Of a stretch of DNA of 64,000 nt, positions 8,323-53,206 are shown piece after piece. The DNA is from an uncultured Treponema sp. (GTDB taxonomy: Bacteria; Spirochaetota; Spirochaetia; Treponematales; Treponemataceae). Positions within the stretch are counted from its first letter, which is position 1. Each line of letters opens with the position of its first letter. The notes below the pieces were generated by a model. It was not told the DNA's origin, did no database searches, and worked only from the letters and a program-made list of their open reading frames with translations. The position numbers and the translations under genes were made by a program. The stretch is taken from contig CAKUWD010000002.1 of the NCBI GenBank assembly GCA_934699065.1, positions 811 through 64,810 on the forward strand, given 5' to 3'.

Positions 8323-8680
8323 TTACAAAACATTGCCTGAGTTTGATAAAGATTTTAAATCTCTTCTTAAGCGGTTCAGAACTCTGGAAAATGATTTTGC
8401 AACATTTAGAAAATTCACAATAGAAACTTTTTATGAACAGAATATTCCAACGACTGCATTTGTCCCCATTGAAGGATTTTGCAATGAGAGTTATGTTTCG
8501 AATAAAGTAAGAAAGTTTGCATGTCTTTCCTTGCCAGGAAGAGGAAATCAATCTGGCATCAGAATTATTTTTGTATGGCAGGAAAAGATATGCACAGTTA
8601 CCTTTGTTGAGATTTATTTTAAGGGTGATAAAACTGAGGAAGACCGGGAGAGGTTGAAAAAGTTTTTGAAGAAAATTTAA
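8315..8680 (+). CDS. RelE/ParE-superfamily-like toxin
   Basis: 121 aa, overlapping the antitoxin by 8 nt. Pattern KVRKF..GRGNQSGIRIIFVW..VTFVEIYFKGDK resembles ParE-like/RelE toxins (K.R...GKSGGYR.I....I.L..IY.K). Confidence 0.6.
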   Translation: MINYKTLPEFDKDFKSLLKRFRTLENDFATFRKFTIETFYEQNIPTTAFVPIEGFCNESYVSNKVRKFACLSLPGRGNQSGIRIIFVWQEKICTVTFVEIYFKGDKTEEDRERLKKFLKKI

Positions 8681-8691
8681 GGAGATAAGAA

Positions 8692-9363
8692 ATGATGAAC
8701 AAAGAACAATTTAAGAGATTGACTTCATTGATTTTACTGGGTAAAGAAAATCCAAAAGGCCGTATTAAATCTGTTTTGTCCTGGGAATTAGTTTTTATAA
8801 CAATAGATTTTCTGCTAATTATGATTACTGCTATTGTAGGAAAGCATCTGAATAATCTGCATAAAAAACAAATCTGGTTTTGTTTTATAATGATTCTTTA
8901 TATGCTTGATTTTTGTTTTTTATTATTTCTAATTATTCGAAGTATAGTTAATTATATAAAATTAAAACCTAATTTTGTTAATACTCTATATTCTGCTCTT
9001 GAAACAGATGAAAAAATAAAAAATGACATATTCGAAATCTGTAATGAAATTGAAAATAGTAATTCTGGAGAAATTTCAAAATATCATAATTTATTGAAAG
9101 AAAGAGTTGCTTTGATAAAAAAACGTATGCCACTTATGTTTGAAGGAAAAGAAGTTGGTGGTATTCTGCTCATCATCACCATAGTAATGAATAGCATAAA
9201 AGGGTTTGATGAAGTAGTAAAATCTGATAGCATTTTAAGAATTATAGCTTATTCTCTTTCTATTGCTGTTCCTGCTGCATATTGTTTGATGCAGCATTAT
9301 ATTTATAAGCTTGAGATGCTTATTTTTTATTTGGCTTCATGGGAAAAAGAAATTAAATCGTAA
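8692..9363 (+). CDS. hypothetical membrane protein (2 TM, soluble coiled region, 2 TM), possibly third gene of the TA operon
   Basis: 223 aa. AGGAG Shine-Dalgarno and an 11-nt gap after the toxin gene. No family recognised. Confidence 0.6.
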   Translation: MMNKEQFKRLTSLILLGKENPKGRIKSVLSWELVFITIDFLLIMITAIVGKHLNNLHKKQIWFCFIMILYMLDFCFLLFLIIRSIVNYIKLKPNFVNTLYSALETDEKIKNDIFEICNEIENSNSGEISKYHNLLKERVALIKKRMPLMFEGKEVGGILLIITIVMNSIKGFDEVVKSDSILRIIAYSLSIAVPAAYCLMQHYIYKLEMLIFYLASWEKEIKS

Positions 9364-9472
9364 CCATTTCTTCTGCAATCCTCCACATCATCCCCCTCCC
9401 CAAATCTCCTTGAATCTTCTGTTAGTCTATGCTAACCTTTGTGTAAAATAAAGCAAAAATGGAGGAATCAAA

Positions 9473-10093
9473 ATGACACTGACAAAAATCTTCTTTATTC
9501 TTGCTGCCTTAGGGCACTGCCTTTGTGCCTGGTGCGATATCCTGCTTACCTACACACCAAACGGCAAGTTTTCTTTTAAGATGATGAGCAGCAACGAAAA
9601 AATGCAGCAGATTTTCAAGGGGACTCCGCTCCGCAATTCCATGATGTCAATCGGCTTTGGTTTTGTTGCCATGTGCCTTTCTGTTTGCGGCTACATGGCT
9701 CTTGCCAGTTATGTAAACAACTTTTCTCACACACTAGCCCTTCTGATTTTTGCAGGCGTTCTGCTTGGTTATCTTGCAGGCATTCCCCATCACATAATCT
9801 GCGGACTTTGCGAATGGATTTATATAAAATTTGACTGCAGCGACCAGTCCCGCCTTACCATAACGGATATGTTCAAAAAGACTTCCTTCACGATGATTTT
9901 GTGTTATCTTGGACAGGCAGTTTTTTCCATTGCATTTTTTGTTGCAGTTGTCGCCGGTATTACACCCCTTCCCCACTGGGCCTGCCTGTTCAACATTCTT
10001 CCGCTGGTTGTTCTGCTTTCTGCCTGCCGCCTTCCCGGAGCCGGAAATTTTGCAGGGGCAATTCAATTTCTTGCCCTGGTGTTTTTGGTGTAA
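9473..10093 (+). CDS. hypothetical integral membrane protein
   Basis: 206 aa with multiple TM segments. GGAGG Shine-Dalgarno. Confidence 0.6.
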   Translation: MTLTKIFFILAALGHCLCAWCDILLTYTPNGKFSFKMMSSNEKMQQIFKGTPLRNSMMSIGFGFVAMCLSVCGYMALASYVNNFSHTLALLIFAGVLLGYLAGIPHHIICGLCEWIYIKFDCSDQSRLTITDMFKKTSFTMILCYLGQAVFSIAFFVAVVAGITPLPHWACLFNILPLVVLLSACRLPGAGNFAGAIQFLALVFLV

Positions 10094-10140
10094 AAGAGGC
10101 CACATACAAAACCAAATGAGAAACTCAAGGCTTACATATC

Positions 10141-10893
10141 TCATCGTGCCCTAGCCCTTGCTTCCTCAGTCAAATCCTTTATGATTTCACTTGCGATGAT
10201 AAGCCCAGCCACAGACGGAACAAAAGCTGTGCTGCCGGGGATGTCGCGGCGGACGGTGCTTTTGCTGTCGGCGGAACTTTCCTCATGCTGGATTGCTTCA
10301 ATTGGGCGCAGGACTTTTTCGGTGGAAAAGACGACCTTTACGTTTTTGATTTTGCGTTTTTTGCATTCCTGGCGCATTACGCGGGCGAGAGGGCACACGG
10401 TGGTCTGGGAGATGTCTGCAACCTGAAACTGGGTCGGGTCCATCTTATTGCCGGCTCCCATGCTGCAAATGATTTTTGTGCCGGCTTCTTTTGCCTGCAT
10501 TATCAGATTGATTTTTGCTGTGACTGTATCAACTGCGTCTACGACATAATCGTATTTTGAAAAGTCAAATTGGTCGCGGGTTTCGGGAAGGTAAAAGCAT
10601 TTGTGAACGTTGACCTCGGCAGAAGGATTGATGTCGAGGATTCGTTCCTTCATTACATCAACTTTATATTTACCGATGGTCGAATGTGTTGCAATAATCT
10701 GTCGGTTGAGATTTGTGAGGCTGACTGTATCATTATCAATAATATCAATATGCTGAATGCCGGAGCGGACAAGGGCTTCAACGGTATAGCCTCCAACGCC
10801 GCCGATTCCAAAAACTGCAACGTGAGCCTTGTGCAAAATTTCCATGGCTTCTTTGCCAAGAAGCAGTTCTGTTCTTGAAAACTGATTTAACAT
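10141..10893 (-). CDS. tcdA: tRNA threonylcarbamoyladenosine dehydratase (ThiF/E1-like)
   Basis: 250 aa. ThiF-family Rossmann motif (VAVFGIGGVGGYTVEALVRSGI..IDNDTVSLTNLNRQ). Size and layout are typical of TcdA/CsdL. Confidence 0.85.
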   Translation of the reverse strand: MLNQFSRTELLLGKEAMEILHKAHVAVFGIGGVGGYTVEALVRSGIQHIDIIDNDTVSLTNLNRQIIATHSTIGKYKVDVMKERILDINPSAEVNVHKCFYLPETRDQFDFSKYDYVVDAVDTVTAKINLIMQAKEAGTKIICSMGAGNKMDPTQFQVADISQTTVCPLARVMRQECKKRKIKNVKVVFSTEKVLRPIEAIQHEESSADSKSTVRRDIPGSTAFVPSVAGLIIASEIIKDLTEEARARAR

Positions 10894-11848: not shown

Positions 11849-12487
11849 ATGCTGTCTCATAACTTCGAAATCCAGTCTTTCGACATGAAAAATATTCCTC
11901 TTATGCTTGAGGTGGTCTTGCCCATGTGGAGCTCTCAGGAATGGGATATTAATTTTCGCCGCTTTTATGTTGAGCACATTATCCGCAGTAATTATTTTGA
12001 AAATGAACTGCATTATCAGCTGGTAGAAAAAGCGGGGAGAGCCGACGAACTTCGCAGCACCCCGACCACCAGCGAGTTTTGCGCCATGGCCTTCTTTGCC
12101 CGCAAAAGTGATATCTGCAAAGCCGAAGACTGGTACAAGCTTGAAGCCAAAAAATTTCCGCAGGATTTGCAGTACTCAACAAAATTGGGCAAAGCCTACA
12201 TCGAACTGATGGACGAAAAGACCCGGGCTTTAATGAAAGACGATGATATCCAGCTCACTCTTTACATCAGCCGGAAAAAGGGCTGCGGCTCAAAGCTGCT
12301 GAATGAACTTTGCAACCAGCTGCGAGTTCAGGGCTATAAAAATCTTTACCTCTGGACCGACTGCGAATGCGACTGGCAATGGTACACAGACCACGGCTAC
12401 GAGCTGGTTTCAAAAGATATATACGAGCCCTTCACAGAACAGGATGGCGAAGATTATCTTACTTATATTTTCAGAAAGGCACTATAG
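11849..12487 (+). CDS. GNAT-family N-acetyltransferase-like protein
   Basis: Motif-A-like RKKGCGSKLLNELCNQLRVQGYKNLYLWT. Confidence 0.6.
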   Translation: MLSHNFEIQSFDMKNIPLMLEVVLPMWSSQEWDINFRRFYVEHIIRSNYFENELHYQLVEKAGRADELRSTPTTSEFCAMAFFARKSDICKAEDWYKLEAKKFPQDLQYSTKLGKAYIELMDEKTRALMKDDDIQLTLYISRKKGCGSKLLNELCNQLRVQGYKNLYLWTDCECDWQWYTDHGYELVSKDIYEPFTEQDGEDYLTYIFRKAL

Positions 12488-12561
12488 ATTTTCAAGCTCA
12501 ATTTAGCATTCGGAAGAATAAATGTATATTCCTTTTTTAAAAGGTTCAGTATAATTTAAGT

Positions 12562-13881
12562 ATGAACATTTCAGTAAATCTTTCAAATCCGTTTGTTTTA
12601 ATTTTTCTATGTGGAACAATTGCTACTTTTTTGATTAATCATTTTCTTGAGTTTATTGATTTTCGTGCGCGATCGAAAAATGGTGGCAGCATCCCGACAG
12701 TTTTACAGAACATTCCCCTTGCCACAGAAACCTTTGATACAAAAAAACTAAAAAATATCAGCGCTTATGAAAACGCAAAATATTTTAAGTGGTGCCTGTC
12801 TTCGGTCTTTACAGTTGCGCTTGATCTTGCTCTTGTGATTTTTGGTTTCTATCCTTTTGTATTTTATTTTGTTTGTGGCATTACAGGGTTTCCCTCAGGA
12901 ATCGGAAACAGCTTCTGCGTTTTCTTTTTATTTATGATTCTTACAGCAGTGCCTTCGTTTGTCCTCGATATTCCTTTTTCACTTTACAGCGAATTTGTCC
13001 TTGAAAAGAAATTCGGTTTTTCTAATATGACCTTAAAACTCTGGATAGCCGACACGCTGAAGAGCATGATTATTGGTCTTGTTTTGATGGCCCTTTTGAC
13101 TTTTGTTGCTGCGGTGGCTTTTGTAAAATTCGCAGGCAGCTGGTGGTTTATTCTCGCCGCAGTTTTGATAGCTTTTACTTTTATTATGCAGGTTGTTTAT
13201 CCAAAATTTATTGCACCGCTTTTTAATAAGTTCAGTCCACTGGAAGACGGCGAGGCAAAAGACAAAATCATGGCCATTCTCGAAAAAGTCGGATTTAAAA
13301 ACGGCGGCCTTTTTGTGATGGATGCCTCAAAGCGAAGCGGTCACAGCAATGCTTATTTCAGCGGATTTGGAAAAACAAAACGCATCGTCCTTTACGATAC
13401 ACTTTTAAAATCTCTAACCCCGGACGAGCTTGCAGCTGTTCTTGGTCATGAGCTTGGACACTTTAAGCTTCACCACATCACAAAACGTCTTTTCATTATG
13501 ATTCCAATGGAATTTGTAGTAACCTTCCTTTTATATAAGATGGCACGTATTCCAGAGCTATATTACGCTTTCGGCTTTTTAGACGATATCACAGCGGAAA
13601 CCATAACAAATGTTCAGTTTATCGGAATCTTCCTTGCCTCAATGCTCTGGGGTGCAATCAGCGAAATCGTAACACCAGTATCAAATATTTTCTCACGCAA
13701 GCAGGAATATCAGGCAGACGCTTTTGGAGCTGATGCCTGCGGGAGCCCTGAGCCACTCATTAACGGCCTTATCAAACTCAACAGCGAAAATCTTTCTGAG
13801 CTGATTCCGCCCAAACTTTACGTCTTCTGGAATTACTCGCATCCAACTCTCGTAGAAAGAATAGAAAAGCTTAGAGAGTAA
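12562..13881 (+). CDS. M48-family zinc metalloprotease (Ste24/CAAX-protease-like)
   Basis: 439 aa. Multi-TM N-terminal half and an HELGH (HExxH) motif. Layout is typical of Ste24. Confidence 0.85.
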   Translation: MNISVNLSNPFVLIFLCGTIATFLINHFLEFIDFRARSKNGGSIPTVLQNIPLATETFDTKKLKNISAYENAKYFKWCLSSVFTVALDLALVIFGFYPFVFYFVCGITGFPSGIGNSFCVFFLFMILTAVPSFVLDIPFSLYSEFVLEKKFGFSNMTLKLWIADTLKSMIIGLVLMALLTFVAAVAFVKFAGSWWFILAAVLIAFTFIMQVVYPKFIAPLFNKFSPLEDGEAKDKIMAILEKVGFKNGGLFVMDASKRSGHSNAYFSGFGKTKRIVLYDTLLKSLTPDELAAVLGHELGHFKLHHITKRLFIMIPMEFVVTFLLYKMARIPELYYAFGFLDDITAETITNVQFIGIFLASMLWGAISEIVTPVSNIFSRKQEYQADAFGADACGSPEPLINGLIKLNSENLSELIPPKLYVFWNYSHPTLVERIEKLRE

Positions 13882-16757: not shown

Positions 16758-16897
16758 GACGTTCCCGGCCGCTTCGCGGCCGGTCGGGCTTTCCGCCATT
16801 CCGCTTTCGCTCCAGCCTCCTCACTCTGGTGGTTTCGACAAGCTCAACCACCGTCGTTGCGGTGGCCGCCTTCGGCGTGGCTCCAATCCCTAACGCA
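16758..16897. repeat. GC-rich mosaic repeat with a nested 25-nt GGTGGTT element (16828..16852)
   Basis: Two blocks are identical to the reverse complement of parts of 51168..51312: 16799..16820 = rc 51233..51254 (22/22) and 16857..16877 = rc 51187..51207 (21/21). Hairpin CCGGCCGCttcGCGGCCGG at 16765..16783. Confidence 0.75.
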
Positions 16898-44750: not shown

Positions 44751-47069
44751 ATGCCTAAAATCGAATGTAACGAAAAACTGTTTTTTGATGCTATCGGAAA
44801 AAAATACACTTATGATGCTCTGGAAGATGTACTTCCTTGCGCTAAGGCTGAGCTGGATGAAAAGCCGGATATGAGCCAGCCTGAAAACGAGCGCGTTGTA
44901 AAAATCGAATTGAATGATACTAACCGCCCTGACCTCTGGTCTACTAACGGTGTGGCTCGTCAGATTAAGCTGCACGAAGGCGGAAAAACTGTTGACTATA
45001 TGAAGCTGATGGCTAACCACGGCAACAACGATTACGAAGGCCGTATTGTTGAGGTTGACCCTGAGCTTAAAGATATCCGCCCTTACATGGTTGCATTTAT
45101 GATTACCGGTAAGGCAATTGATGATCCTATGCTTAAGGACATCATCCAGACTCAGGAAAAGCTGGCATGGAACTTTGGCCGCAAGCGTAAGTCTATTTCT
45201 ATGGGCGTTTACCGCGTTGACCAGATTAAGTTCCCTGTTCGCTACCACGCTGTTGACCCGGACAAAACTTCGTTCGTGCCACTTCAGTGCGACGCTCCAA
45301 TGACTTGCCGCCAGATTCTTACTGACCATCCAAAGGGAAAAGATTTCGGCTGGATTCTCGCTGATATGAAAAAGTTCCCTCTTTTGAGCGATGCTAAGGA
45401 CGAAGTTCTTTCTATGGCTCCAATCATCAACTCAGCTACTCTTGGTGCTGTTCAGGTTGGCGACAAGGACCTTATGGTTGAGCTCACTGGTGATAATATC
45501 GAAAACCTGATTTTGTCTGCTAACATCGTTGCTTGTGATTTTGCTGATCAGGATTATGAAATCAAGCCTATTCTTGTAAAGCATCCTTATGATACTGGTC
45601 TTGGAAAGGATATTATGGTTCCTTACTACTTCCAGCCAACAACTAAAACAACTCTCGGCGCAATCAACAAGCTTCTCGGAAGCGACTTTGATATGCCTAA
45701 GGTTGTTGATGCTCTTACACGCATGGGAAGCACTGTTGAAGTTAAGGGTGACGAAATCACTTTGAGCCCAGCTCCTTACCGCAACGACTTCCTCCACGAA
45801 GTTGATATTATTGAAGACGTTATGATTGGCTGCAATGTTGCCGCCTTTGAGCCACGCACTCCACAGGACTTCACTGTTGGCCGTCTTCTTCCACTTACTG
45901 AGTTCAGCCGCAAGGCAAAGACTTTGATGGTTGGTCTTGGCTATCAGGAAATGATTTTCAACTATGTTGGTTCTAAGAAAGATTATATTGATAATATGCT
46001 GATTGACGGCTCTAAGGTTATCGAAATTGCTAACCCTATGAGCGAAAACTATCAGTTTATCCGCCCTGAGATTTTGTCATCTCTCTGCCGTGCCGAAGCT
46101 GGTTCTGCAAACGCTATGTACCCTCACAAGATTTTTGAAATCGGTAAGGTTGCATATCTTAAAGATGATGAAAACACTGGTACAATCACACGCCAGCACC
46201 TGGGCTTCTTGACTGCTGCAAGCAATGCTAACTTCAATACTCTGGCATCTGAAGTTTCTTCACTTGTTTACTTCCTCGACCACGAGTACAAAGTAGTTGA
46301 AAGCGAAGATCCACGCTTCATTCCTGGCCGTCAGGCTCAGCTGATTGTTGATGGACAGCCGGCAGGTGTATTCGGTGAAGTTCACCCACAAGTTCTTGAG
46401 AACTGGGGAATTACAGTTCCTTGTGTTGCCGGCGAACTCGACCTCGAAACTTTGATGGCTACAGCTGATACTAAAACTGAAGCTGAAAAGGCAAAAGACA
46501 AGAAAAATACGGTGGTTGAGCCTGTCGAAACCACCGCTGGTGGCAACCAGAAATCAGAAGCAGAAACAAACCCTGTAAAATACTTCAACGAACACATTGA
46601 GCTCCGCGTTGCAAAAATCACAAAGGTTGAAACAAACCCACAGGGCGACAAGCTTTATATCGAAACTTTGGATGACGGAACTGGCACAGAACGCATTATT
46701 CAGAGCGGCCTTCGCCCATACCTGACAGAAGATGAACTTCTCGGTCAGCACGTAATCATCGCTGCTAACCTCGCTCCAAGAAAGATGAAGGGCGTAGAAA
46801 GCCGCGGTATGCTCCTTGCCTGCGACTACACAGAAGACGGCAAAGAAAAGGTTGAACTCCTCACTGCTCCATGGGCAGCTCCAGGAACAATCATCCAGAT
46901 TGAAGGTGCCGAATACACAGGCGAAAAGCCAGCCAAAATCGACATCGACCACTTCTGCAAGATTGAATATCGCGTAAGCGGAAAGTGCTTCACAATCGCC
47001 GGCAAGAAAGCTCTCGCAGCCGGCAAGCCAGTTACAACAAACAAGGCCGATAATTGCGAAGTTTGCTAA
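44751..47069 (+). CDS. pheT: phenylalanine--tRNA ligase beta subunit, archaeal/eukaryal type, with a C-terminal EMAP/Trbp111-like tRNA-binding OB-fold
   Basis: The N-terminus (MPKIECNEKLFFDAIGKKYTYD..NRPDLWS) resembles archaeal/eukaryal beta subunits. The C-terminal domain (LRVAKITKVETNPQGDKLYIETLDDG..RKMKGVESRGMLLA) is a tRNA-binding domain. Confidence 0.9.
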   Translation: MPKIECNEKLFFDAIGKKYTYDALEDVLPCAKAELDEKPDMSQPENERVVKIELNDTNRPDLWSTNGVARQIKLHEGGKTVDYMKLMANHGNNDYEGRIVEVDPELKDIRPYMVAFMITGKAIDDPMLKDIIQTQEKLAWNFGRKRKSISMGVYRVDQIKFPVRYHAVDPDKTSFVPLQCDAPMTCRQILTDHPKGKDFGWILADMKKFPLLSDAKDEVLSMAPIINSATLGAVQVGDKDLMVELTGDNIENLILSANIVACDFADQDYEIKPILVKHPYDTGLGKDIMVPYYFQPTTKTTLGAINKLLGSDFDMPKVVDALTRMGSTVEVKGDEITLSPAPYRNDFLHEVDIIEDVMIGCNVAAFEPRTPQDFTVGRLLPLTEFSRKAKTLMVGLGYQEMIFNYVGSKKDYIDNMLIDGSKVIEIANPMSENYQFIRPEILSSLCRAEAGSANAMYPHKIFEIGKVAYLKDDENTGTITRQHLGFLTAASNANFNTLASEVSSLVYFLDHEYKVVESEDPRFIPGRQAQLIVDGQPAGVFGEVHPQVLENWGITVPCVAGELDLETLMATADTKTEAEKAKDKKNTVVEPVETTAGGNQKSEAETNPVKYFNEHIELRVAKITKVETNPQGDKLYIETLDDGTGTERIIQSGLRPYLTEDELLGQHVIIAANLAPRKMKGVESRGMLLACDYTEDGKEKVELLTAPWAAPGTIIQIEGAEYTGEKPAKIDIDHFCKIEYRVSGKCFTIAGKKALAAGKPVTTNKADNCEVC
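46511..46535. repeat. 25-nt palindromic element in frame in the pheT linker
   Basis: GGTGGTTGAGCCTGTCGAAACCACC, read as VVEPVETT. Confidence 0.85.
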
Positions 47070-47075
47070 ACCGCC

Positions 47076-47110
47076 GTCATTGCGAGACACGAAGTGTCGA
47101 AGCAATCCAT
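47076..47110. repeat. GTCATTGCGAG...GCAATCCAT repeat copy
   Basis: GTCATTGCGAGACACGAAGTGTCGAAGCAATCCAT, immediately after the pheT stop. Confidence 0.8.
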
Positions 47111-47170
47111 AAATAAAAAAAGACCGTCCGAAAATGATATGTACCCATAATTCTGGACACATATTATGAA

Positions 47171-48058
47171 TTAGGCCGAAAGAATGGATGCTTCCCTATA
47201 TTTTGTGGGAGGCATCCATTTTGTTTTAACCTGTATTCGCTTATTGTTATAATAGTCTATATATTCTGCAACTGCTACAGAAAATTCTTCAAAAGATTTA
47301 AAATCCTTTTCATGTTCATAATACAATTCATTTTTCAAACGTCCAAAGAAAGTTTCCATAATGCAATTGTCATAGCAGTTTCCTTTACGAGACATAGATT
47401 GAATAACACCATGTTTAATCAAACTTGTTCTGTAATAAATATGCTGATACTGCCATCCCTGATCCGAATGAAAAATAAGTCCATTAACTTCTTGGAATTT
47501 TTCGAATGCTTTATCCAACATTCGTTTTATCTGTTCCATGTTTGGACTCAATGACAAATCATAAGAAATTATCTCATTTGTATGCATATCAAGAATTGGA
47601 GAGAGATAGCATTTGCCCCAAGAAAAATTAAACTGTGAAACATCAGTTGTCCACTTCTGAAAAGGCGCAGTTGTACTGAAATCTCTGTTAATTAGATTCG
47701 CAGCAATTTTTCCAACTTCACCTTTGTATGAATGATACTTTTCTTTTGGTCGTTTTCCAAATAGTCCCAGAGAATGCATTATTCTTTGGACTCTCTTGTG
47801 ATTTACAGTTTTACCACGGTTTAGAAGTTCTCTGTAAACGCGACGCACACCATATCTTTCTTTGTTTTCTGCAAAAATCTTCAGTATTTCTTGTGCCAGG
47901 GCTGCATTTTTTTCAGCAATAACGTTCTTTTTGCTTATTTCAAAGTAATATGTCGATTTTGACATTTTTGCAGCTTTTAAAAGATAATTTAATCTGTATC
48001 CTTTTTCTTGGAGTTCTTTGAGGACTTTTGCTTTTTCGCCTTGAGTTGTTCGTCCCAT
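47171..48058 (-). CDS. IS3-family transposase OrfB (DDE/RNase-H-fold integrase core)
   Basis: Motifs WTTDVS, HSDQGWQY and GNCYDNCIMETFFGRLKNE are typical of IS3 OrfB. Confidence 0.85.
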   Translation of the reverse strand: MGRTTQGEKAKVLKELQEKGYRLNYLLKAAKMSKSTYYFEISKKNVIAEKNAALAQEILKIFAENKERYGVRRVYRELLNRGKTVNHKRVQRIMHSLGLFGKRPKEKYHSYKGEVGKIAANLINRDFSTTAPFQKWTTDVSQFNFSWGKCYLSPILDMHTNEIISYDLSLSPNMEQIKRMLDKAFEKFQEVNGLIFHSDQGWQYQHIYYRTSLIKHGVIQSMSRKGNCYDNCIMETFFGRLKNELYYEHEKDFKSFEEFSVAVAEYIDYYNNKRIQVKTKWMPPTKYREASILSA

Positions 48059-48081
48059 TCTGCGTGTCTCAAGGCTATAGA

Positions 48082-48088
48082 TTTTTTT
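48082..48088 (-). promoter_or_regulatory. candidate programmed -1 ribosomal frameshift heptamer A_AAA_AAA (OrfA to OrfAB)
   Basis: In the restored OrfA frame (..ENEIIKK), a -1 slip enters the orfB frame (..KKIYSLETRRMGRTTQ..), which is open from 48115. Confidence 0.6.
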
Positions 48089-48107
48089 ATTATTTCGTTC
48101 TCCGCTT

Positions 48108-48557
48108 TCAGATATTCATTTTCATTTCGTAACCGTAATAGTTCATCTCGTTCTTTTTCTGTAAGAGTTTTCGTGTTTTTTGATTTTTTTTCATAACTTG
48201 ATTTTTCCTTGGTCGTCCTATTGAAATGCTCTTTAATCCATCATAACCGTTATCTTTATATTTTTTAACCCACAGATGAAGCTGCCCAGGATTCAGCCCG
48301 GCCTTGCATGCAGTTTCTTCAATTGATTTTCCTTCAAGAACTTTTGAAACAAGATTAAATCGTTCTTCTAAAGTCCACCTTTTTTTTTGAGACTTGTGAT
48401 GTAATGCTGATATACCTTGATGTTCCTCAATTTTTTCCCATCGTCGTATCATTTTATGGAAATTTTGTGGATCTTTAATACCTTCTGGTGTTTCAACCCA
48501 GATTCCTTGTCTGTAAAGTTCAATGCATCTAAGTTTGAACTCTAATGTGTATCGCAT
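48108..48557 (-). CDS. IS3-family transposase OrfA (HTH), frame apparently broken at an A8 tract
   Basis: N-terminal HTH and GRPRK. After A8 (48184..48191) the leucine-zipper-like tail (TEKERDELLRLRNENEYLKAENEIIKKSIAL..) continues in the -1 frame to a stop at 47989..47991. The track ORF tail (..NEMNYYGYEMKMNI) looks out of frame. Confidence 0.75.
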   Translation of the reverse strand: MRYTLEFKLRCIELYRQGIWVETPEGIKDPQNFHKMIRRWEKIEEHQGISALHHKSQKKRWTLEERFNLVSKVLEGKSIEETACKAGLNPGQLHLWVKKYKDNGYDGLKSISIGRPRKNQVMKKNQKTRKLLQKKNEMNYYGYEMKMNI

Positions 48558-48624
48558 AAAAATACCCCTTTTACTTTTGTCCAGTAAAAGGGGTACATAT
48601 CAAAATCCCGGACGGTTTTTTTGT

Positions 48625-50310
48625 TTATTTATTAATATACTTCCAACCAAAACCACCCACACTTTTTTTCTTTCCTTTGCAAACTGAAGTTATATTTGAT
48701 GAACTTTTTAATCCACAATCATTTGCAGCTTCTGTAATAGAATCATATATTTTTTCTATTTCGTTTGTTTTTAGATTTAACCTGGCCACTTTTCGATTCT
48801 TATTATGCCAGAATCTGTCCATTGCACACTTTCTACAACCAGTTCCACTTGTTCTACTAGCAATTTCTGCTTCATATTCATTTCCACAATCTGGACAAAT
48901 CCACCAGGCCTTAAAGTGAGTTCCACAAGAAAACATATATGGTGTTGCAGGAAAGTTCTTCTGAAAGTGCCATTGTTTTGCTAATTCTGGATATAGTTTT
49001 CCAAAAGAATTTGAATATTCTTTATCCATAATTTTTGTAATCTGAAATTTATCTTTTTCGATATGAATATCATAATTATTTATACCTAAGAATTGCAATA
49101 AATCACAAATTGTTTTTTCCAAAATATCGTGTTCCCACATTGTGTAAAAGACAAAGTCACAACTCTCTAAATCAGAATCTTTTTTCTTTGTTTCTTTTAA
49201 TCGAATTAAAGTAATTCCATTTTCTTTGCATAAAAGATATTTTCTTTTTTCTCTTTCAAACAAGCTATCTTTATGCCAGACTTTTCCATCATATTCAATA
49301 GCAATCTTTTTATCAGGAATAAAAATATCAAGTTCGAAATCTTTAAGAAAAGAATCCTTATATCTATTTATTGTATTTGGATAATATTTCCTTACATAAA
49401 AAAATACAGCCTGTTCTGCAAATGAAGTATGTCTTCTTGCATCACAAATCGGACAACAATTCCCATTGCCCTTTTTCCTTGTTCTATTTAAAATAGTTGA
49501 TTGATATTCATGTCCGATAGGACATATCCACCAAACTTTTTTTGCATTTCCATAAGAAAATTGGGTTGGTTTCAAATTACCATTTTTTGTTGGATGCCAT
49601 TGTACTGCTATATCAGGATGCGTTGTTTGTAAATCATTTAGTCCTTTTACCACAATTCGATTTGTACAAACTGGACAATATAATGCTTTATTACGATTAT
49701 TTATCTTATCTTCAAATGAATAATTACACACGTGGCATTTCCACCATACTCGTTTGTTTGATGATGATGTGAAATCAGATGGTTTAAGAGGATAATTTGC
49801 TTCATAATCCCAATCTTTGAGTAACTTAGGATTTGAAATACATCCCGTTTCTTGTAATTTCTCTTTATATCTCTTTTTCCAAACCTTTTTACGAGCACAT
49901 GAAGGACATCCATTTTTCCTCGCACCTGTCCTTGCTGTAACACTAGTTACCCAATGATTGTTACAAACAGAACACACCCAATGTACTCTAGATAATGAAC
50001 CTTCTGTAACATCTTCGGGTGTTAGGGTACCGTTATTTTCATAATCCCATTCTTTTGCTAATTCTGGATGCGTAGATTGTAAGTCATTTTTTCCACGATG
50101 CAACTTACGATTAGAACATATTGGGCAATTATTTCCATCTATTCTTTCTTGCAATGTAGCTTGCCAAGAATGATTTCTATCACAACTCCACCATAAAGGT
50201 TTTATATATTCTAAAGAAAGTGTATTTATAGAAATTTCTTTATTTTTGGAATAATCGAATTCTTTAGTAATAAATGAATATAATTCCGTTATGTCAAAAT
50301 TCAAAAACAA
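48625..50310 (-). CDS. multi-zinc-ribbon protein with a Vsr/DUF559-like PD-(D/E)xK nuclease core and a C-terminal NUMOD/IENR-like DNA-binding tail (homing-endonuclease-like)
   Basis: Five W.C....(H/Y)...(x)n..CP.C treble-clef-like units separated by NDLQSTHPELAKEW-type linkers. Nuclease-like FELDIFIPDKKIAIEYDGKVWH...ITLIRLKE. Tail IEKIYDSITEAANDCGLKSSSNITSVCKGKKKSVGGFGWKYI. Apparent TTG start. Confidence 0.65.
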   Translation of the reverse strand: MFLNFDITELYSFITKEFDYSKNKEISINTLSLEYIKPLWWSCDRNHSWQATLQERIDGNNCPICSNRKLHRGKNDLQSTHPELAKEWDYENNGTLTPEDVTEGSLSRVHWVCSVCNNHWVTSVTARTGARKNGCPSCARKKVWKKRYKEKLQETGCISNPKLLKDWDYEANYPLKPSDFTSSSNKRVWWKCHVCNYSFEDKINNRNKALYCPVCTNRIVVKGLNDLQTTHPDIAVQWHPTKNGNLKPTQFSYGNAKKVWWICPIGHEYQSTILNRTRKKGNGNCCPICDARRHTSFAEQAVFFYVRKYYPNTINRYKDSFLKDFELDIFIPDKKIAIEYDGKVWHKDSLFEREKRKYLLCKENGITLIRLKETKKKDSDLESCDFVFYTMWEHDILEKTICDLLQFLGINNYDIHIEKDKFQITKIMDKEYSNSFGKLYPELAKQWHFQKNFPATPYMFSCGTHFKAWWICPDCGNEYEAEIASRTSGTGCRKCAMDRFWHNKNRKVARLNLKTNEIEKIYDSITEAANDCGLKSSSNITSVCKGKKKSVGGFGWKYINK

Positions 50311-50347
50311 AATCGTATCTCTTCTTACAATTCAAGCACATTAAGAA

Positions 50348-50632
50348 TTATTTATTATAATAATCCCTGCCGCCAAAATCTTTCCAGGTTTTATACATAT
50401 CAATGTAATTTGCTTGAATAAACTTTTGAATTACGGTTATTTCCTTATCAGTTAAATCTCCACGCTTTTGCATTACAGATGAACCGTCAGCTCTTACAAA
50501 AAACTTTGCTGAATCTTTTTCTGTCAGTTTTTTATCACTGGCATGAACATGCATAGCCTCAACAATACATTGCGACGTAAAATATAAATAATGATTTGCA
50601 ATTTTATCACGTAGATATTTAGGCATTGTCAT
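50348..50632 (-). CDS. small protein, DUF4160-like (tentative)
   Basis: 94 aa. MPKY..YLYFTSQ..MHVHAS..AKFFV...L..KE...IQKFIQANYIDMYKTW resembles the DUF4160 pattern (MP..fyfy.n.h.pPH.H....eaK..l). Overlaps the upstream ORF by 14 nt. Confidence 0.4.
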   Translation of the reverse strand: MTMPKYLRDKIANHYLYFTSQCIVEAMHVHASDKKLTEKDSAKFFVRADGSSVMQKRGDLTDKEITVIQKFIQANYIDMYKTWKDFGGRDYYNK

Positions 50633-50858
50633 CCTCTAGGAAAGCTAAGTTTCGTTTTGCCAAAGAAAGAACAATTCCCTGTTCAATTTCATCCATGTTA
50701 GTTTCGATAATTTCCAATTCTTTACTAATTACCATTGCACAATCAGGATGATCAAGATTTAAGATGCTTATAAATCCATCATCTCGTTTTGAAAAAGCGT
50801 ATCCATTTACGATGATTGTTGCATTTTCTGCAATTTTCTGAAGTTCTTTTTCAGGCAT
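50619..50858 (-). CDS. small hypothetical protein
   Basis: 79 aa, acidic. Overlaps both neighbours (8 and 14 nt). No family recognised. Confidence 0.5.
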   Translation of the reverse strand: MPEKELQKIAENATIIVNGYAFSKRDDGFISILNLDHPDCAMVISKELEIIETNMDEIEQGIVLSLAKRNLAFLEDDNA

Positions 50859-51120
50859 ATTCTATTTTTACCTCTTTGATAGGTGCAAGGAATTTTTCTT
50901 TATCCATATATAAACCTTCAAGTACAGGAATAAGGTCTATATATTCTTCGATTTCTTCATCTTTGTGTTTATACTTTGCCATGACTTCAATGTAACCATC
51001 ATCCCACTGTAAAACTTTTGTATATCTTTCTAATCCGTTACAAGTTCGGAAAGTCAGCGTTTTTCCGCCAAATGAGAAAGTTGTATATTTATCAAAACTA
51101 CTTAAAATCGCAGTATTCAT
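50851..51120 (-). CDS. small hypothetical protein (first gene of the cassette)
   Basis: 89 aa. Preceded by TGGAAA-17 nt-TATAAT (the -10 at 51133..51128) only about 7 nt from the ATG. No family recognised. Confidence 0.5.
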   Translation of the reverse strand: MNTAILSSFDKYTTFSFGGKTLTFRTCNGLERYTKVLQWDDGYIEVMAKYKHKDEEIEEYIDLIPVLEGLYMDKEKFLAPIKEVKIEYA

Positions 51121-51167
51121 TAAATGTATTATAAGTCAAATATTTTGAATTTTCCACTATTAAAAAT

Positions 51168-51312
51168 GCGTTAGCGCTGTGAAGGGCGCCGAAGGCGGCC
51201 ACCGCAAGCGAACGAATGAAATGAGCGAGTGCGGAGGCTGGAGCGAAAGCGGAACCCGTAACATAGCGACCCGGAGCGACCGAGCATAGTGAGAGAGCGC
51301 AGGGGAACGCCC
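51168..51312. repeat. GC-rich mosaic repeat (relative of 16758..16897)
   Basis: Contains the 22- and 21-nt blocks identical to the reverse complement of the 16.8-kb copy. Lacks the nested 25-nt element. Confidence 0.75.
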
Positions 51313-51327
51313 ATATTTTTCTTATTA

Positions 51328-51445
51328 TAAAATACTTCAACGAGCACATTGAGCTCCGCGTAAGCAACAAGTGTTCGGCAAAAAAGCCATGGCAGCCGGT
51401 AAGCCTGTTACAACAAACAAGGCAGATAACTGCGAAGTTTGCTAA
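51328..51445 (+). pseudogene. decayed second copy of the pheT 3' (tRNA-binding domain) module
   Basis: 51328..51361 matches 46576..46609 (1 synonymous mismatch). 51357..51445 matches 46971..47069 with a 10-nt deletion. The last 54 nt have 4 mismatches, all synonymous third positions, and the same stop. An internal 366-nt deletion is flanked by CGCGT microhomology. Confidence 0.8.
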
Positions 51446-51480
51446 GAGATTCCCGCGTCAAGCGCGTGAATGACAATAAA

Positions 51481-51513
51481 GGCCAGTCCGAACCACGGGC
51501 TGGCCTTTCTTTT
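51481..51513 (+). terminator. Rho-independent terminator (probably the original pheT terminator; convergent with yoeB)
   Basis: GGCCAGTCCgaaccacGGGCTGGCC followed by TTTCTTTT. Confidence 0.6.
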
Positions 51514-51540
51514 GTGTATTTTCGAATGTAATACACCTTT

Positions 51541-51798
51541 TTAGTTATAATGTCCTTTACAAGCGGCAATGATTATATTATCTCCATCCTGCTTGTAAAC
51601 AATACGATTGGTGTCATCTATCCGGCGACTCCACCAGCCGCTAAGATTTTCTTTTAATGGCTCTGGTTTTCCTATTCCGTCGAAAGGACTTCGTTGGATA
51701 TCTTTTATTAAGGCATTTAATTTTTTAAGAGTTTTCTTGTCTTCCGTTTGCCAGGCGCAATAATCATCCCAAGCGTTTTCATGCCACAAAATCTTCAC
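51541..51798 (-). CDS. yoeB: YoeB/Txe-family toxin
   Basis: 85 aa, closely following the E. coli YoeB pattern (W.E.AWDDY..WQ..DKK..KK.N.LIKD..R.PF.G.GKPEPLK.NLSG.WSRRI....R.VY......I.IAAC..HY). Confidence 0.9.
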   Translation of the reverse strand: MKILWHENAWDDYCAWQTEDKKTLKKLNALIKDIQRSPFDGIGKPEPLKENLSGWWSRRIDDTNRIVYKQDGDNIIIAACKGHYN

Positions 51799-51801
51799 TG
51801 G

Positions 51802-52062
51802 CTACACCTCTGCCAGCTTATGTTCTTTAAGCTGTGCTTTTCCGCTGTCAATTTCGCTGGTGATTTTTTCGAGATAATGAAGGTTTGTGTCGCTGTAAAA
51901 TGGATCAAGAGTAAGGTCGAAAGGAATTCTACGCTCACGAATAACCTTTTTAGCAAACATCTTAAATGCTGCTGTAATTGTTAAACCAAGCTGATCGCAT
52001 ACATCTTCAAAAGAGTTCTTTTCATCTGTATCCATTCTGATATTAATCATTGACTGTGCCAT
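51802..52062 (-). CDS. RelB/DinJ-family antitoxin
   Basis: Ribbon-helix-helix N-terminus (INIRMDTDEKNSFEDVCDQLGLTITAAFKMFAKKVIRERRIPFDL). Start taken at the ATG with an AGGAAG Shine-Dalgarno (MAQSM..). A 3-nt gap precedes yoeB. Confidence 0.75.
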   Translation of the reverse strand: MAQSMINIRMDTDEKNSFEDVCDQLGLTITAAFKMFAKKVIRERRIPFDLTLDPFYSDTNLHYLEKITSEIDSGKAQLKEHKLAEV

Positions 52063-52115
52063 AAATTCACTTCCTATATACAATGTAAAGCATAATTATA
52101 TATTTGTAAAGCAAT

Positions 52116-53114
52116 TTACTTCACCTCATTCACCAGCTCTTCCCCGCCCGCAAATGCCCTTATATTTTCCAGCGTAGTATCTGCCAGGTTTTTAAGCGCA
52201 TTTGTTGTTAGGAAGGCCTGATGGCCTGTAATTATAACATTCGGGAAGGTCAAAAGTCTCGCCAGCACATCATCCGTCATAATATCTGTAGACCAGTCGC
52301 TGAAGAAATATTTACTTTCTTCTTCGTAAACGTCCATGCCGATTCCACCGATGTGGCCGTGCTTGAGAGCATGAACAAGAGCCTTGGAATCGATGAGGGC
52401 GCCACGACCAGTATTAATAATCACCGCATCCTGCTTCATCATTTTCATTGTATCGTGATTTACGATGTGCTTTGTCTCTTCGGTGAGCGGGCAATGCAAG
52501 CTGAGTACATCACTCTGGCGGAAGATTTCTTCCTTGCTCACATACTGAGCCCCGCTCTCACTTGCCCACTTTTCATTCGGATATAAATCATAGGCTATAA
52601 TCTTCATACCAAAGCCTTTTAGGATGCCAGCCATAATCTGGCCGATTTTTCCGGTACCCAAAATACCTGCGGTAAGCCCGTGCAAGTCTCGGCCAGTCAA
52701 ACCTTCAATATTAAAGTTTGCTGTCTTTGTACGCAGGTATGCCTGAGGAATATGGCGGGTAAGAGACAGCAGCAGGGCCGCCCCGTGCTCAGCAACCGCA
52801 TAAGGCGAATAAGCCGGAACACGAACAACTTTTATCCCGGCCGTCGCAGCTGCTTCTAAATCAACATTATTAAAACCTGCACAGCGCAGGGCAATCAGCT
52901 TTACGCCGCACTCTGAAAGAATGCTGATGACCTCTGCATTTACCACATCATTTACAAATACACAAACCGCATCATAATCGTGAGCGGTCAAAGCAGTATT
53001 TTCATTCAGCCTAAAATCACGAAAATCTATTTCGTAATTAAAACCGCCCTCTGTATTCGCTTTTGTAAACGAAGCCTTGTCGTAAGAACGTGTATCAAAA
53101 AATGCAATTTTCAT
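52116..53114 (-). CDS. ldhA: D-lactate dehydrogenase (D-isomer-specific 2-hydroxyacid dehydrogenase)
   Basis: MKIAFFDTRSYDK.. N-terminus as in LdhA. NAD motif GILGTGKIGQ. Catalytic-region motifs. Start taken at MKIAFF. Confidence 0.85.
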   Translation of the reverse strand: MKIAFFDTRSYDKASFTKANTEGGFNYEIDFRDFRLNENTALTAHDYDAVCVFVNDVVNAEVISILSECGVKLIALRCAGFNNVDLEAAATAGIKVVRVPAYSPYAVAEHGAALLLSLTRHIPQAYLRTKTANFNIEGLTGRDLHGLTAGILGTGKIGQIMAGILKGFGMKIIAYDLYPNEKWASESGAQYVSKEEIFRQSDVLSLHCPLTEETKHIVNHDTMKMMKQDAVIINTGRGALIDSKALVHALKHGHIGGIGMDVYEEESKYFFSDWSTDIMTDDVLARLLTFPNVIITGHQAFLTTNALKNLADTTLENIRAFAGGEELVNEVK

Positions 53115-53206
53115 ATTGTAAGTCTCCTCTAACTCTATGAATAAGTTAACATCGGAATACATTAGTCGTCAACATTAAAAATCAGGCCAAACCTAAAGCC
53201 ATAAGA

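Follow-up and report, generated by a model that had tools for sequence, protein, structure and literature searches.

Replacement of the 3' end of a gene, with the old end left downstream, has been described at toxin loci. At Rhs loci, C-terminal displacement has been attributed to a circular intermediate and homologous recombination (Jackson et al. 2009, PMC2935791), and for effector-immunity clusters of type VI secretion systems (T6SS) homology-facilitated illegitimate recombination was suggested (Kirchberger et al. 2017, PMC5361080). Here we describe a similar arrangement at pheT, the gene for the beta subunit of phenylalanyl-tRNA synthetase (PheRS), in a 64,000-nt stretch of DNA (hereafter the window) from an uncultured Treponema sp. 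(GenBank assembly GCA_934699065.1, contig CAKUWD010000002.1, positions 811 to 64,810). Behind the intact gene come cargo and, after the cargo, a second, decayed copy of the gene's own 3' end (51328-51445), which is probably the former pheT 3' end, displaced by incoming DNA in one of a repeated set of homology-anchored displacements.

The pheT locus resembles the Rhs, contact-dependent growth inhibition (CDI) and T6SS loci in that a constant 5' part would gain a new 3' end along with the genes behind it, the previous end being shifted downstream as an orphan with homology. As in those systems, repeated events would lead to arrays, no integrase is present, and the arrays may later move by ordinary homologous recombination. 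Unlike those loci, however, pheT encodes a subunit of a housekeeping aminoacyl-tRNA synthetase, its exchanged tips are equivalent alleles of one tRNA-binding module rather than different toxins, its cargo consists of unrelated selfish and defence genes rather than cognate immunity genes, and its orphan, which has no apparent selective value, decays.

Defence islets flanked by core genes offer a second comparison. The Pseudomonas aeruginosa hotspot cDHS1 is flanked by core genes, lacks mobility genes and lies, by chance, next to pheS/pheT (PMC10250203). The interval between pheT and ldhA in Treponema shares with such islets a fixed position, a variable content of toxin-antitoxin, restriction-modification and nuclease genes, the lack of an integrase, and cargo that is much more similar between genomes than the flanks are. 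It differs from cDHS1-type islets in organism, neighbouring genes and scale (0.1-6 kb in Treponema), and displaced 3' copies of a flanking gene are not described in the defence-islet literature.

Integrative and conjugative elements (ICE), integrative and mobilizable elements (IME) and cis-mobilizable elements (CIME) that insert at the 3' ends of genes restore the gene and leave their cargo followed by the displaced native 3' end, and they accrete in tandem. An intact target gene, cargo, a partial second 3' end and tandem stacking are all found at pheT as well, but the locus has no recombinase, its repeats are long and diverged, and its boundaries vary. Finally, one cargo gene, encoding a 561-aa protein, recalls the free-standing homing endonuclease genes of phages (T4 seg/mob, I-HmuI-type) in its NUMOD-like tail and in forming an intergenic module the size of an open reading frame (ORF). 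Unlike these phage genes it is chromosomal, consists mostly of five DUF4379 zinc ribbons, and has close homologues at other loci.

A Second, Decayed pheT 3' End

The features on which the comparison is based are given below; loci from related genomes are cited by their L numbers.

44751-47069, plus strand: pheT, PheRS beta subunit of the archaeal/spirochaete type, 772 aa (Pfam)
Parts of pheT: core up to ...DLETLM (about 46463), hypervariable linker 46464-46574, oligonucleotide/oligosaccharide-binding (OB) module, copy 1, 46575-47069
51317-51327, unstranded: junction of the cargo side with the displaced OB module, CATATTTTTCTTATTAT followed by AAAATACTTCAAC (comparison with L089)
51328-51445, plus strand: displaced, decayed pheT OB module, copy 2 (BLAST and alignment; intact counterpart L089rc 8479-8971)
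51449-51518, plus strand: 3' flank of copy 2, of native type, with repetitive extragenic palindromic (REP) hairpin B (ATTCCCGCGTCAAGCGCGTGAAT) and terminator B (matches L033, L084 and part of L009)

In copy 2, the first 34 nt of the OB module are linked by a bridge of 14 nt to its last 70 nt, which include the stop codon. Positions 51328-51361 match 46576-46609 at 33/34 nt (97%), and 51376-51445 match 47000-47069 at 62/70 nt (89%) with the same TAA end; BLAST E values were about 1e-20 and 6e-10. The second pheT 3' copy with a common stop codon, which had been reported in an initial annotation of this DNA, is therefore real. Relative to copy 1, it lacks 366 nt (46605-46970) at a CGCGT microhomology and a further 10 nt (46990-46999), and these gaps leave the two blocks out of frame with each other. 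The copies had been said to differ only synonymously. The five changes listed in support (GAA/GAG, GGC/GGT, CCA/CCT, GCC/GCA and AAT/AAC) are correct, but the list was incomplete: AAG/AAA and GCT/GCC are additional synonymous differences, the last block also carries a CTC/ATG change (L to M), and the bridge differs from copy 1 by GGA/AAC (G to N) and TGC/TGT.

The same arrangement was present in 13 independently assembled metagenome contigs with identical PheT, obtained from several samples, and thus is not an assembly artefact, an outcome that the initial annotation had named as one that would undo its claim. The junction is, moreover, common to contigs with different surroundings. Homology to the window's own copy 1 does end at the stop codon, as had been claimed, yet the DNA that follows, REP B and terminator B, is the flank found 3' of intact pheT in L033, L084 and, in part, L009. 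Because this hairpin and terminator are homologous to the native pheT flank of other genomes, the displaced unit reaches beyond the stop codon. A terminator scan placed terminator B at 51478-51508 plus a T-run, in agreement with the earlier report of a separate terminator behind the remnant.

Comparison with relatives yielded a decay series. The 72 nt around the junction (51291-51362) are identical to L089rc 8441-8512 (72/72 nt), and the junction was also found in L084, L085 and L090, with a recurrent order of a GC-rich block, CCCATATTTTTCTTATTAT, and then directly AAAATACTTCAACGAGCAC... In L089 the junction is followed by a complete, open OB module of 492 nt with its stop codon and terminator. 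L085 and L084 carry a different internal deletion, bounded by CGCG, behind the same junction; further deletions in L090 and L084 extend into terminator B, and in L088 about 30 decayed nt of the module are left. Because this series includes the intact module of L089, we conclude that the remnant in the window was once a full module and later lost the 366 and 10 nt, as the initial annotation had supposed. Judged from the shared sequence, the junction goes back to a single event and reached the present strains by inheritance or by spread; because many strains share it, that event would be old or its product widely spread.

Divergence of the Two Copies

The intact pair in L089 allowed the divergence of the copies to be read over the whole module. 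The first and third 3' ends of L089 differ at 20 of 492 nt (96% identity), and the 20 affected codons comprise 17 synonymous and three non-synonymous changes, where neutral decay after a duplication in situ would be expected to give about 1.8 non-synonymous changes per synonymous one (our own calculation from site counts). These proportions indicate that the two L089 copies diverged as functional alleles under purifying selection. The protein variants SNKC and KKAMAAG of the window remnant also occur in other genomes, in pheT genes that are intact. Over its last 70 nt the remnant differs at four positions from alleles of other genomes vs. eight from copy 1. The exchanged OB tips are alleles of one tRNA-binding module (PF01588) and are 92-96% identical. 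The proposal that two functional alleles from different lineages were juxtaposed here was thus upheld.

The flanks point the same way as the alleles. Copy 1 is followed by terminator A, as in L012 and at the empty site of L004, whereas the remnant is followed by REP B and terminator B. In L084, the REP B/terminator B flank follows an intact pheT, and a toxin-antitoxin pair and ldhA come next, which is the expected state of a recipient. Because two different native flank types are present, the remnant with its flank looks like the resident and copy 1 with terminator A like the newcomer; the event would accordingly have run in that direction.

These data bear on a simpler explanation, in which a tandem duplication arose in situ by unequal crossing-over at short repeats such as TAAAATA and was followed by decay and later replacement of the cargo. 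TAAAATA/TACTTCA is common to the OB start and to the ldhA-proximal flank of the GC block in L025, L084 has a duplicated ldhA, and the two copies of L089 are each other's closest relatives. Against this stand the 17:3 ratio in L089, which misfits neutral decay of one copy, the different native flanks of the two window copies (terminator A vs. REP B with terminator B), and the end of the remnant, where fewer of the 70 nt differ from alleles found in other genomes (four) than from copy 1 of the window (eight). We regard duplication in situ as very improbable.

The initial annotation had also suggested a phylogenetic placement of both OB alleles. No single clade of displaced copies was recovered; the alleles are mosaic, the third 3' end of L089 is closest to the first 3' end of the same contig, and a simple tree was uninformative.

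Probable Displacement and Gene Flow at the pheT-ldhA Hotspot

Further features of the interval are needed for the comparison with relatives.

50348-51120, minus strand: small overlapping genes encoding DUF4160 (50348-50632), DUF7723 (50619-50858) and DUF7724 (50851-51120) proteins (Pfam)
51164-51316, unstranded: GC-rich non-coding block with REP-like short palindromes, 61% G+C (comparison with relatives)
51541-52083, minus strand: YoeB toxin (51541-51798) and RelB-type antitoxin (51802-52083) (Pfam YoeB_toxin, E 6.7e-37; RelB, E 7.7e-17)
52116-53162, minus strand: ldhA-like D-2-hydroxyacid dehydrogenase gene, the conserved right border of the hotspot, convergent with pheT (Pfam 2-Hacid_dh_C, E 2e-55)

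The window belongs to a rumen Treponema of the Treponema bryantii group, in which the pheT-ldhA interval is an integrase-free variable hotspot between two convergent core genes. An empty site of the kind foreseen in the initial annotation was found in L004 (core 98% identical), where ldhA begins about 100 nt after pheT with a REP hairpin and a terminator between them, and pheT also lies next to ldhA in the more distant L070 and L076. The L004 ldhA (12412-13333) was read in two overlapping frames, which may be due to a frameshift or to faulty sequencing of the metagenome-assembled genome. In nearly every other close relative the cargo differs, with at least ten different sets, including Phd/ParE, PIN and HicAB modules, an MmeI-like restriction-modification gene, and KilA-N and HTH proteins. 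A uniform arrangement with identical cargo in all relatives, the other outcome that would have spoken against the earlier proposal, was thus not what we observed. In the window the cargo genes all lie on the minus strand and have a G+C content of 31-34%, vs. 45-46% for pheT and ldhA.

Orphan pheT 3' fragments behind an intact pheT were found in the window, L023, L007 and L084-L090. In L023, the intact pheT 3' end and its terminator are followed by a 0.6-kb Phd/ParE pair, and this pair by a repeat of the last 75-100 nt, which has a REP and a terminator to itself. A 73-nt piece from inside pheT lies behind a small antitoxin-like ORF in L007. L087 and L089 each contain three pheT 3' ends (the intact one, the last about 120 nt, and a full module), every one with a terminator, and in these arrays an MmeI-like gene lies in between. 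The left boundaries of the displaced copies are at -494 nt in the window and in the third end of L089, at about -120 in L087 and the second end of L089, and at about -100 in L023, and because they differ between events, they argue against a fixed attachment site.

The single 4.3-kb foreign segment of the initial annotation did not survive this comparison. DUF7724, the GC block, the junction and the remnant are shared by many strains whose cargo upstream is quite different, the zinc-ribbon (561-aa) gene is a separate ORF-sized module, and the displacements are layered, with different left boundaries.

Layers of this kind could also be the remains of integrase-mediated elements, CIME-like and possibly several, that targeted the pheT 3' end, carried a replacement 3' end in their attachment site and used a recombinase since lost or acting in trans. 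The three-end arrays of L087 and L089 resemble tandem accretion, and an intact gene followed by cargo and a displaced 3' end is the picture left by elements that restore the 3' end. The full 772-aa ORF of pheT retains a complete tRNA_bind domain, the inserted DNA supplying a replacement 3' end as integrative elements do. On the other hand, Pfam identified no site-specific (tyrosine or serine) recombinase among the ORFs of 47070-51327, where an IS3 DDE transposase with inverted repeats and a target duplication of its own was all that came up, and none was found among the called genes within about 10 kb or in the annotated intervals of L084-L091, which bears out the lack of an integrase reported initially. 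The cargo of L023 is only a 0.6-kb Phd/ParE pair, the repeats reach 492 nt and have diverged, with no short identical core, and the left boundaries vary from event to event. A lone integrase could be missed in the relatives' cargo, for which 25 of 89 Pfam families were listed (see Discussion). Taken together, we consider an origin from integrase-mediated elements unlikely.

Exchange between species was evident from mosaic identities. Between genomes, nucleotide identity is 94-100% for the small genes, GC block, spacer and YoeB/RelB pair, vs. 82-93% for the pheT core and 80-86% for ldhA; the three small genes alone are 94-100% identical among genomes whose pheT cores are 82-90% identical, and YoeB/RelB is 96-99% identical in L088 and L090. 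In most comparisons the synonymous divergence (dS) of the OB module was lower than that of the core (0.52 vs. 1.13 for L012, 0.45 vs. 1.34 for L008 and 0.36 vs. 0.77 for L089). At the linker/OB boundary both identity and dS change stepwise, and this, together with the mosaic flanks, is consistent with crossovers in pheT.

The 561-aa Gene

48625-50310, minus strand: homing-endonuclease-like gene, 561 aa (Pfam, PHROG, PADLOC and structure model)

The product contains five DUF4379 treble-clef zinc ribbons (Pfam E 4.6e-83) and a C-terminal I-HmuI_NUMOD-like DNA-binding domain (Pfam E 6.8e-6). It matched PHROG 559 ('HNH endonuclease', E 3.8e-36) and PHROG 3339 ('homing endonuclease'), and PADLOC reported HEase for the tail only. 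In the central part (about aa 296-375), a weak match to REase_MTES_1575 was found below the cutoff (E 6e-4), and a PD-(D/E)XK-like catalytic core is probable, not one of the HNH or GIY-YIG type. A search of PDB sequences with the nuclease core gave no informative match. The AlphaFold2 (AF2) model had a predicted local distance difference test (pLDDT) score of 84.5 and matched DUF4379 proteins and I-HmuI (1u3e) in Foldseek (probability 1.0). NCBIfam offered no family for the nuclease or for the three small genes, and since PADLOC gave solely the homing-endonuclease tail match, a defence-system identity for the cargo was dropped.

The gene behaves as an ORF-sized presence/absence module: it lies behind pheT in the window and in Treponema sp. 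JC4 and is missing in L004 and most relatives. Homology to JC4 spans exactly the ORF (82.7% nt identity), and the JC4 copy is also directly behind pheT. This orthologue (L011 6390-8070) is split into two ORFs of 170 and 365 aa and is probably a pseudogene. The closest homologues of the protein (68% identity) are at unrelated loci, and a pheT-specific homing endonuclease was for that reason demoted to a minor alternative.

In that alternative, the nuclease or earlier nucleases would have cleaved genomes without the gene, close to their pheT 3' end or terminator; repair from a donor would have copied the nuclease gene together with the OB module by co-conversion, and aberrant repair would have left the old module behind. 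The homing-endonuclease hallmarks of the protein fit this account, as do the ORF-sized module directly behind the pheT terminator in two lineages (the window and JC4) and an OB dS below that of the core, which co-conversion predicts. Three independent remnants also break around GTGCTTCACAATCGC, namely at the 10-nt deletion of the window, the right end of the L007 fragment and the left end of the L023 fragment. However, the junction and remnant are shared by many strains without the gene, normal homing leaves its flank unduplicated, the nuclease core is weakly identified, the JC4 copy is split, and the closest homologues sit at unrelated loci. The homing-like route left open in the initial annotation thus lost ground, and we hold it to be improbable.

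pheT and Its Appended Module

46509-46540, plus strand: REP-like palindrome (ACGGTGGTT...AACCACC), in frame in the pheT linker, encoding TVVEPVETT (sequence comparison)
47076-47108, unstranded: REP-like hairpin (GTCATTGCGAG...GAAGCAATCC) just 3' of the copy 1 stop codon (sequence reading)

Pfam identified B1, B5 and tRNA_synthFbeta domains in PheT, followed by a PF01588 tRNA_bind domain at aa 618-707. Identity to relatives steps upward at about 46551, i.e., at the linker/OB boundary. Seven close relatives (L044, L054, L071, L073, L075, L077 and L079), with cores of 90-94% aa identity, end pheT at ...GELDLETLM*, which is where the linker of the window starts, and have neither linker nor OB module. 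Because these relatives end pheT at DLETLM*, the OB module is dispensable, and rearrangements at the pheT 3' end are therefore tolerated. The appended tRNA-binding domain is thus a presence/absence trait among close relatives of the window.

The linker (46464-46574) has 58-89% aa identity, vs. 95-99% for the neighbouring parts. Its in-frame REP (ACGGTGGTTGAGCCTGTCGAAACCACC, coding for TVVEPVETT) gave a 93.5% match to the REP hairpin 3' of the pheT stop codon in L023, and the linker palindromes in general were found 3' of stop codons in relatives. The L033 linker (1190-1320) contains two other REP palindromes in frame, coding for KDSRDKHGNDK and VSLSGSTRQS, and a hypervariable linker with in-frame REP-type palindromes is also listed for the pheT of L006. 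These observations suggest that the linker derives from, or behaves like, intergenic DNA. The OB module of L033 (about 1640-1790) shows an in-frame tandem duplication of 75 nt, in which RGMLLACDYTEDGKEKVELLTAPWA occurs twice. The hairpin at 47076-47108 is missing from the otherwise similar flank of L004.

Insertion Sequence and Remaining Interval Content

47115-47134, unstranded: left half of terminator A (stem GACCGTCCG, then loop), bidirectional, split by an insertion sequence (IS) (comparison with L004 and L012)
47135-48602, minus strand: IS3-family insertion sequence, orfA 48108-48557 and orfB 47171-48058 (NCBIfam, Pfam)
48603-48623, unstranded: right half of terminator A (AAATCCCGGACGGTTTTTTTG) (comparison with L004)

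The IS3-family assignment is clear, as the element has an orfA/orfB transposase, terminal inverted repeats and a target duplication within the 3-4 bp of the family. It matched transpos_IS3 in NCBIfam (E 2.5e-88) and rve and HTH in Pfam, occurs once in the window, and has inverted repeats of 25 nt that are 84% complementary. Terminator A is intact (GACCGTCCGAAAATCCCGGACGGTC) between pheT and ldhA in L004 and after pheT in L012. Read against the L004 terminator, the target duplication is a 3-bp AAA (47132-47134 and 48603-48605) inside the loop, and the IS arrived later than the rest, as had been thought. It splits the only terminator common to the convergent pheT and nuclease genes (47115-48623), and transcripts of both genes may now run on into the IS.

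Identical copies of the 89-aa DUF7724 protein were found in 419 blocks of the public collection. In seven of the eight places shown it lies between pheT and ldhA or adjoins one of them, the L087 and L089 contigs showing pheT and no ldhA. The identical protein is in the hotspot at most places examined, although pheT diverges by 5-15% between the species. It is accompanied by DUF7723/DUF4160 in some places and by HicAB in others.

The GC block is 92% identical to L025 17020-17172, where it abuts the ldhA stop, and is also present in L084, L085, L087, L089 and L090. It shares motifs (e.g., GCGAAAGCGGAACCC) with a GC-rich stretch in L094 (5940-6050), which lies directly 3' of a 68%-identical zinc-ribbon nuclease homologue at an unrelated locus, and partial copies occur elsewhere in the window, e.g., at 16799-16877. 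It may belong to a REP- or MITE-like (miniature inverted-repeat transposable element) family of intergenic repeats of these treponemes. A structured RNA was considered for the GC block and the remnant and rejected: the Rfam search returned nothing beyond a chance-level match, and the fold of the GC block was no more stable than that of shuffled sequence (z = -0.77).

The YoeB/RelB pair is further cargo between the remnant and ldhA and is missing at the empty site of L004. L084 carries two ldhA copies (original coordinates 1-497 and 9463-10461) flanking about 9 kb, so the right-hand border gene of the hotspot can be duplicated too. The DUF7724/GC-block/pheT-remnant unit lies within these 9 kb.

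Discussion

For displacement by incoming DNA, which we consider probable, we infer the following recombination mechanism. DNA from a related Treponema would have brought a new linker-distal OB module, a terminator and cargo. On its left side it would have recombined homologously with the resident pheT, and on its right side the first codons of the resident OB module would have been the point of joining, with no site-specific recombinase at work. The event could have been one-ended homology-facilitated illegitimate recombination, or a circularised fragment with pheT 3' homology could have inserted in the equivalent Campbell-type manner. This would have left pheT intact, and the displaced module, now without a start codon, would have been eroded by microhomology-mediated deletions. 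In the lineage of the window, the cargo before the junction would have been exchanged piecewise, with the homing-endonuclease-like gene here and other genes elsewhere, and the IS3 element would have landed later in the loop of the new terminator. In relatives the same displacement may have occurred again at other pheT 3' positions, giving stacks of up to three 3' ends, and ordinary homologous recombination in the flanking pheT and ldhA would then have carried whole arrays from species to species.

Several points weigh against this account. The two L089 copies are mutually closest (20/492 differences), and gene conversion between copies may blur their history. OB and core dS did not differ in L004 and L029, and the higher conservation of the OB module could be due in part to selection or codon bias; because of these two genomes, selection may contribute to the low OB dS. 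The only hint of a joining microhomology is the TAAAATA common to the GC-block flank in L025 and the OB start, and L025 could be a deletion derivative of the window-type junction. A metagenome scan for GC-block/ldhA junctions gave one match, of the L025 type. Lastly, the pooled Pfam scan of the relatives' cargo showed no recombinase among the 25 of 89 families listed and is to that extent incomplete.

One may go further and see in the pheT 3' module and terminator a portable homology handle for gene capture of an integron-like kind but without an integrase, which seems to us a rather remote prospect. If it were true, a linked pheT 3' end would let any cassette that reaches a new host insert there by recombination at pheT, cleavage by homing-type nucleases of the hotspot, such as the 561-aa protein, could stimulate the insertion, and cassettes and 3' ends already present would move further downstream. 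This traffic would then be part of the reason why the dispensable OB module and the REP-invaded linker are kept.

Displacement by incoming DNA, as preferred here, reveals no new kind of machinery; it would be a recombination scar of an already known type. It would, however, provide a clean, datable case in which 3'-end displacement affects a housekeeping synthetase gene instead of a toxin locus. The decay series is unusually complete, and the loss of the old module can be traced step by step across strains. For the annotation of metagenome-assembled genomes, it means that such an orphan need not be miscalled as the pseudogene of a second pheT, and for uncultured gut spirochaetes it offers a place to study gene flow without an integrase. 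In rumen Treponema, toxin-antitoxin, restriction-modification and homing-endonuclease-like genes move between species at the pheT-ldhA interval without a recognisable integrase, and an essential translation gene would work on while its dispensable last module is swapped and the old one is left behind as a fossil.

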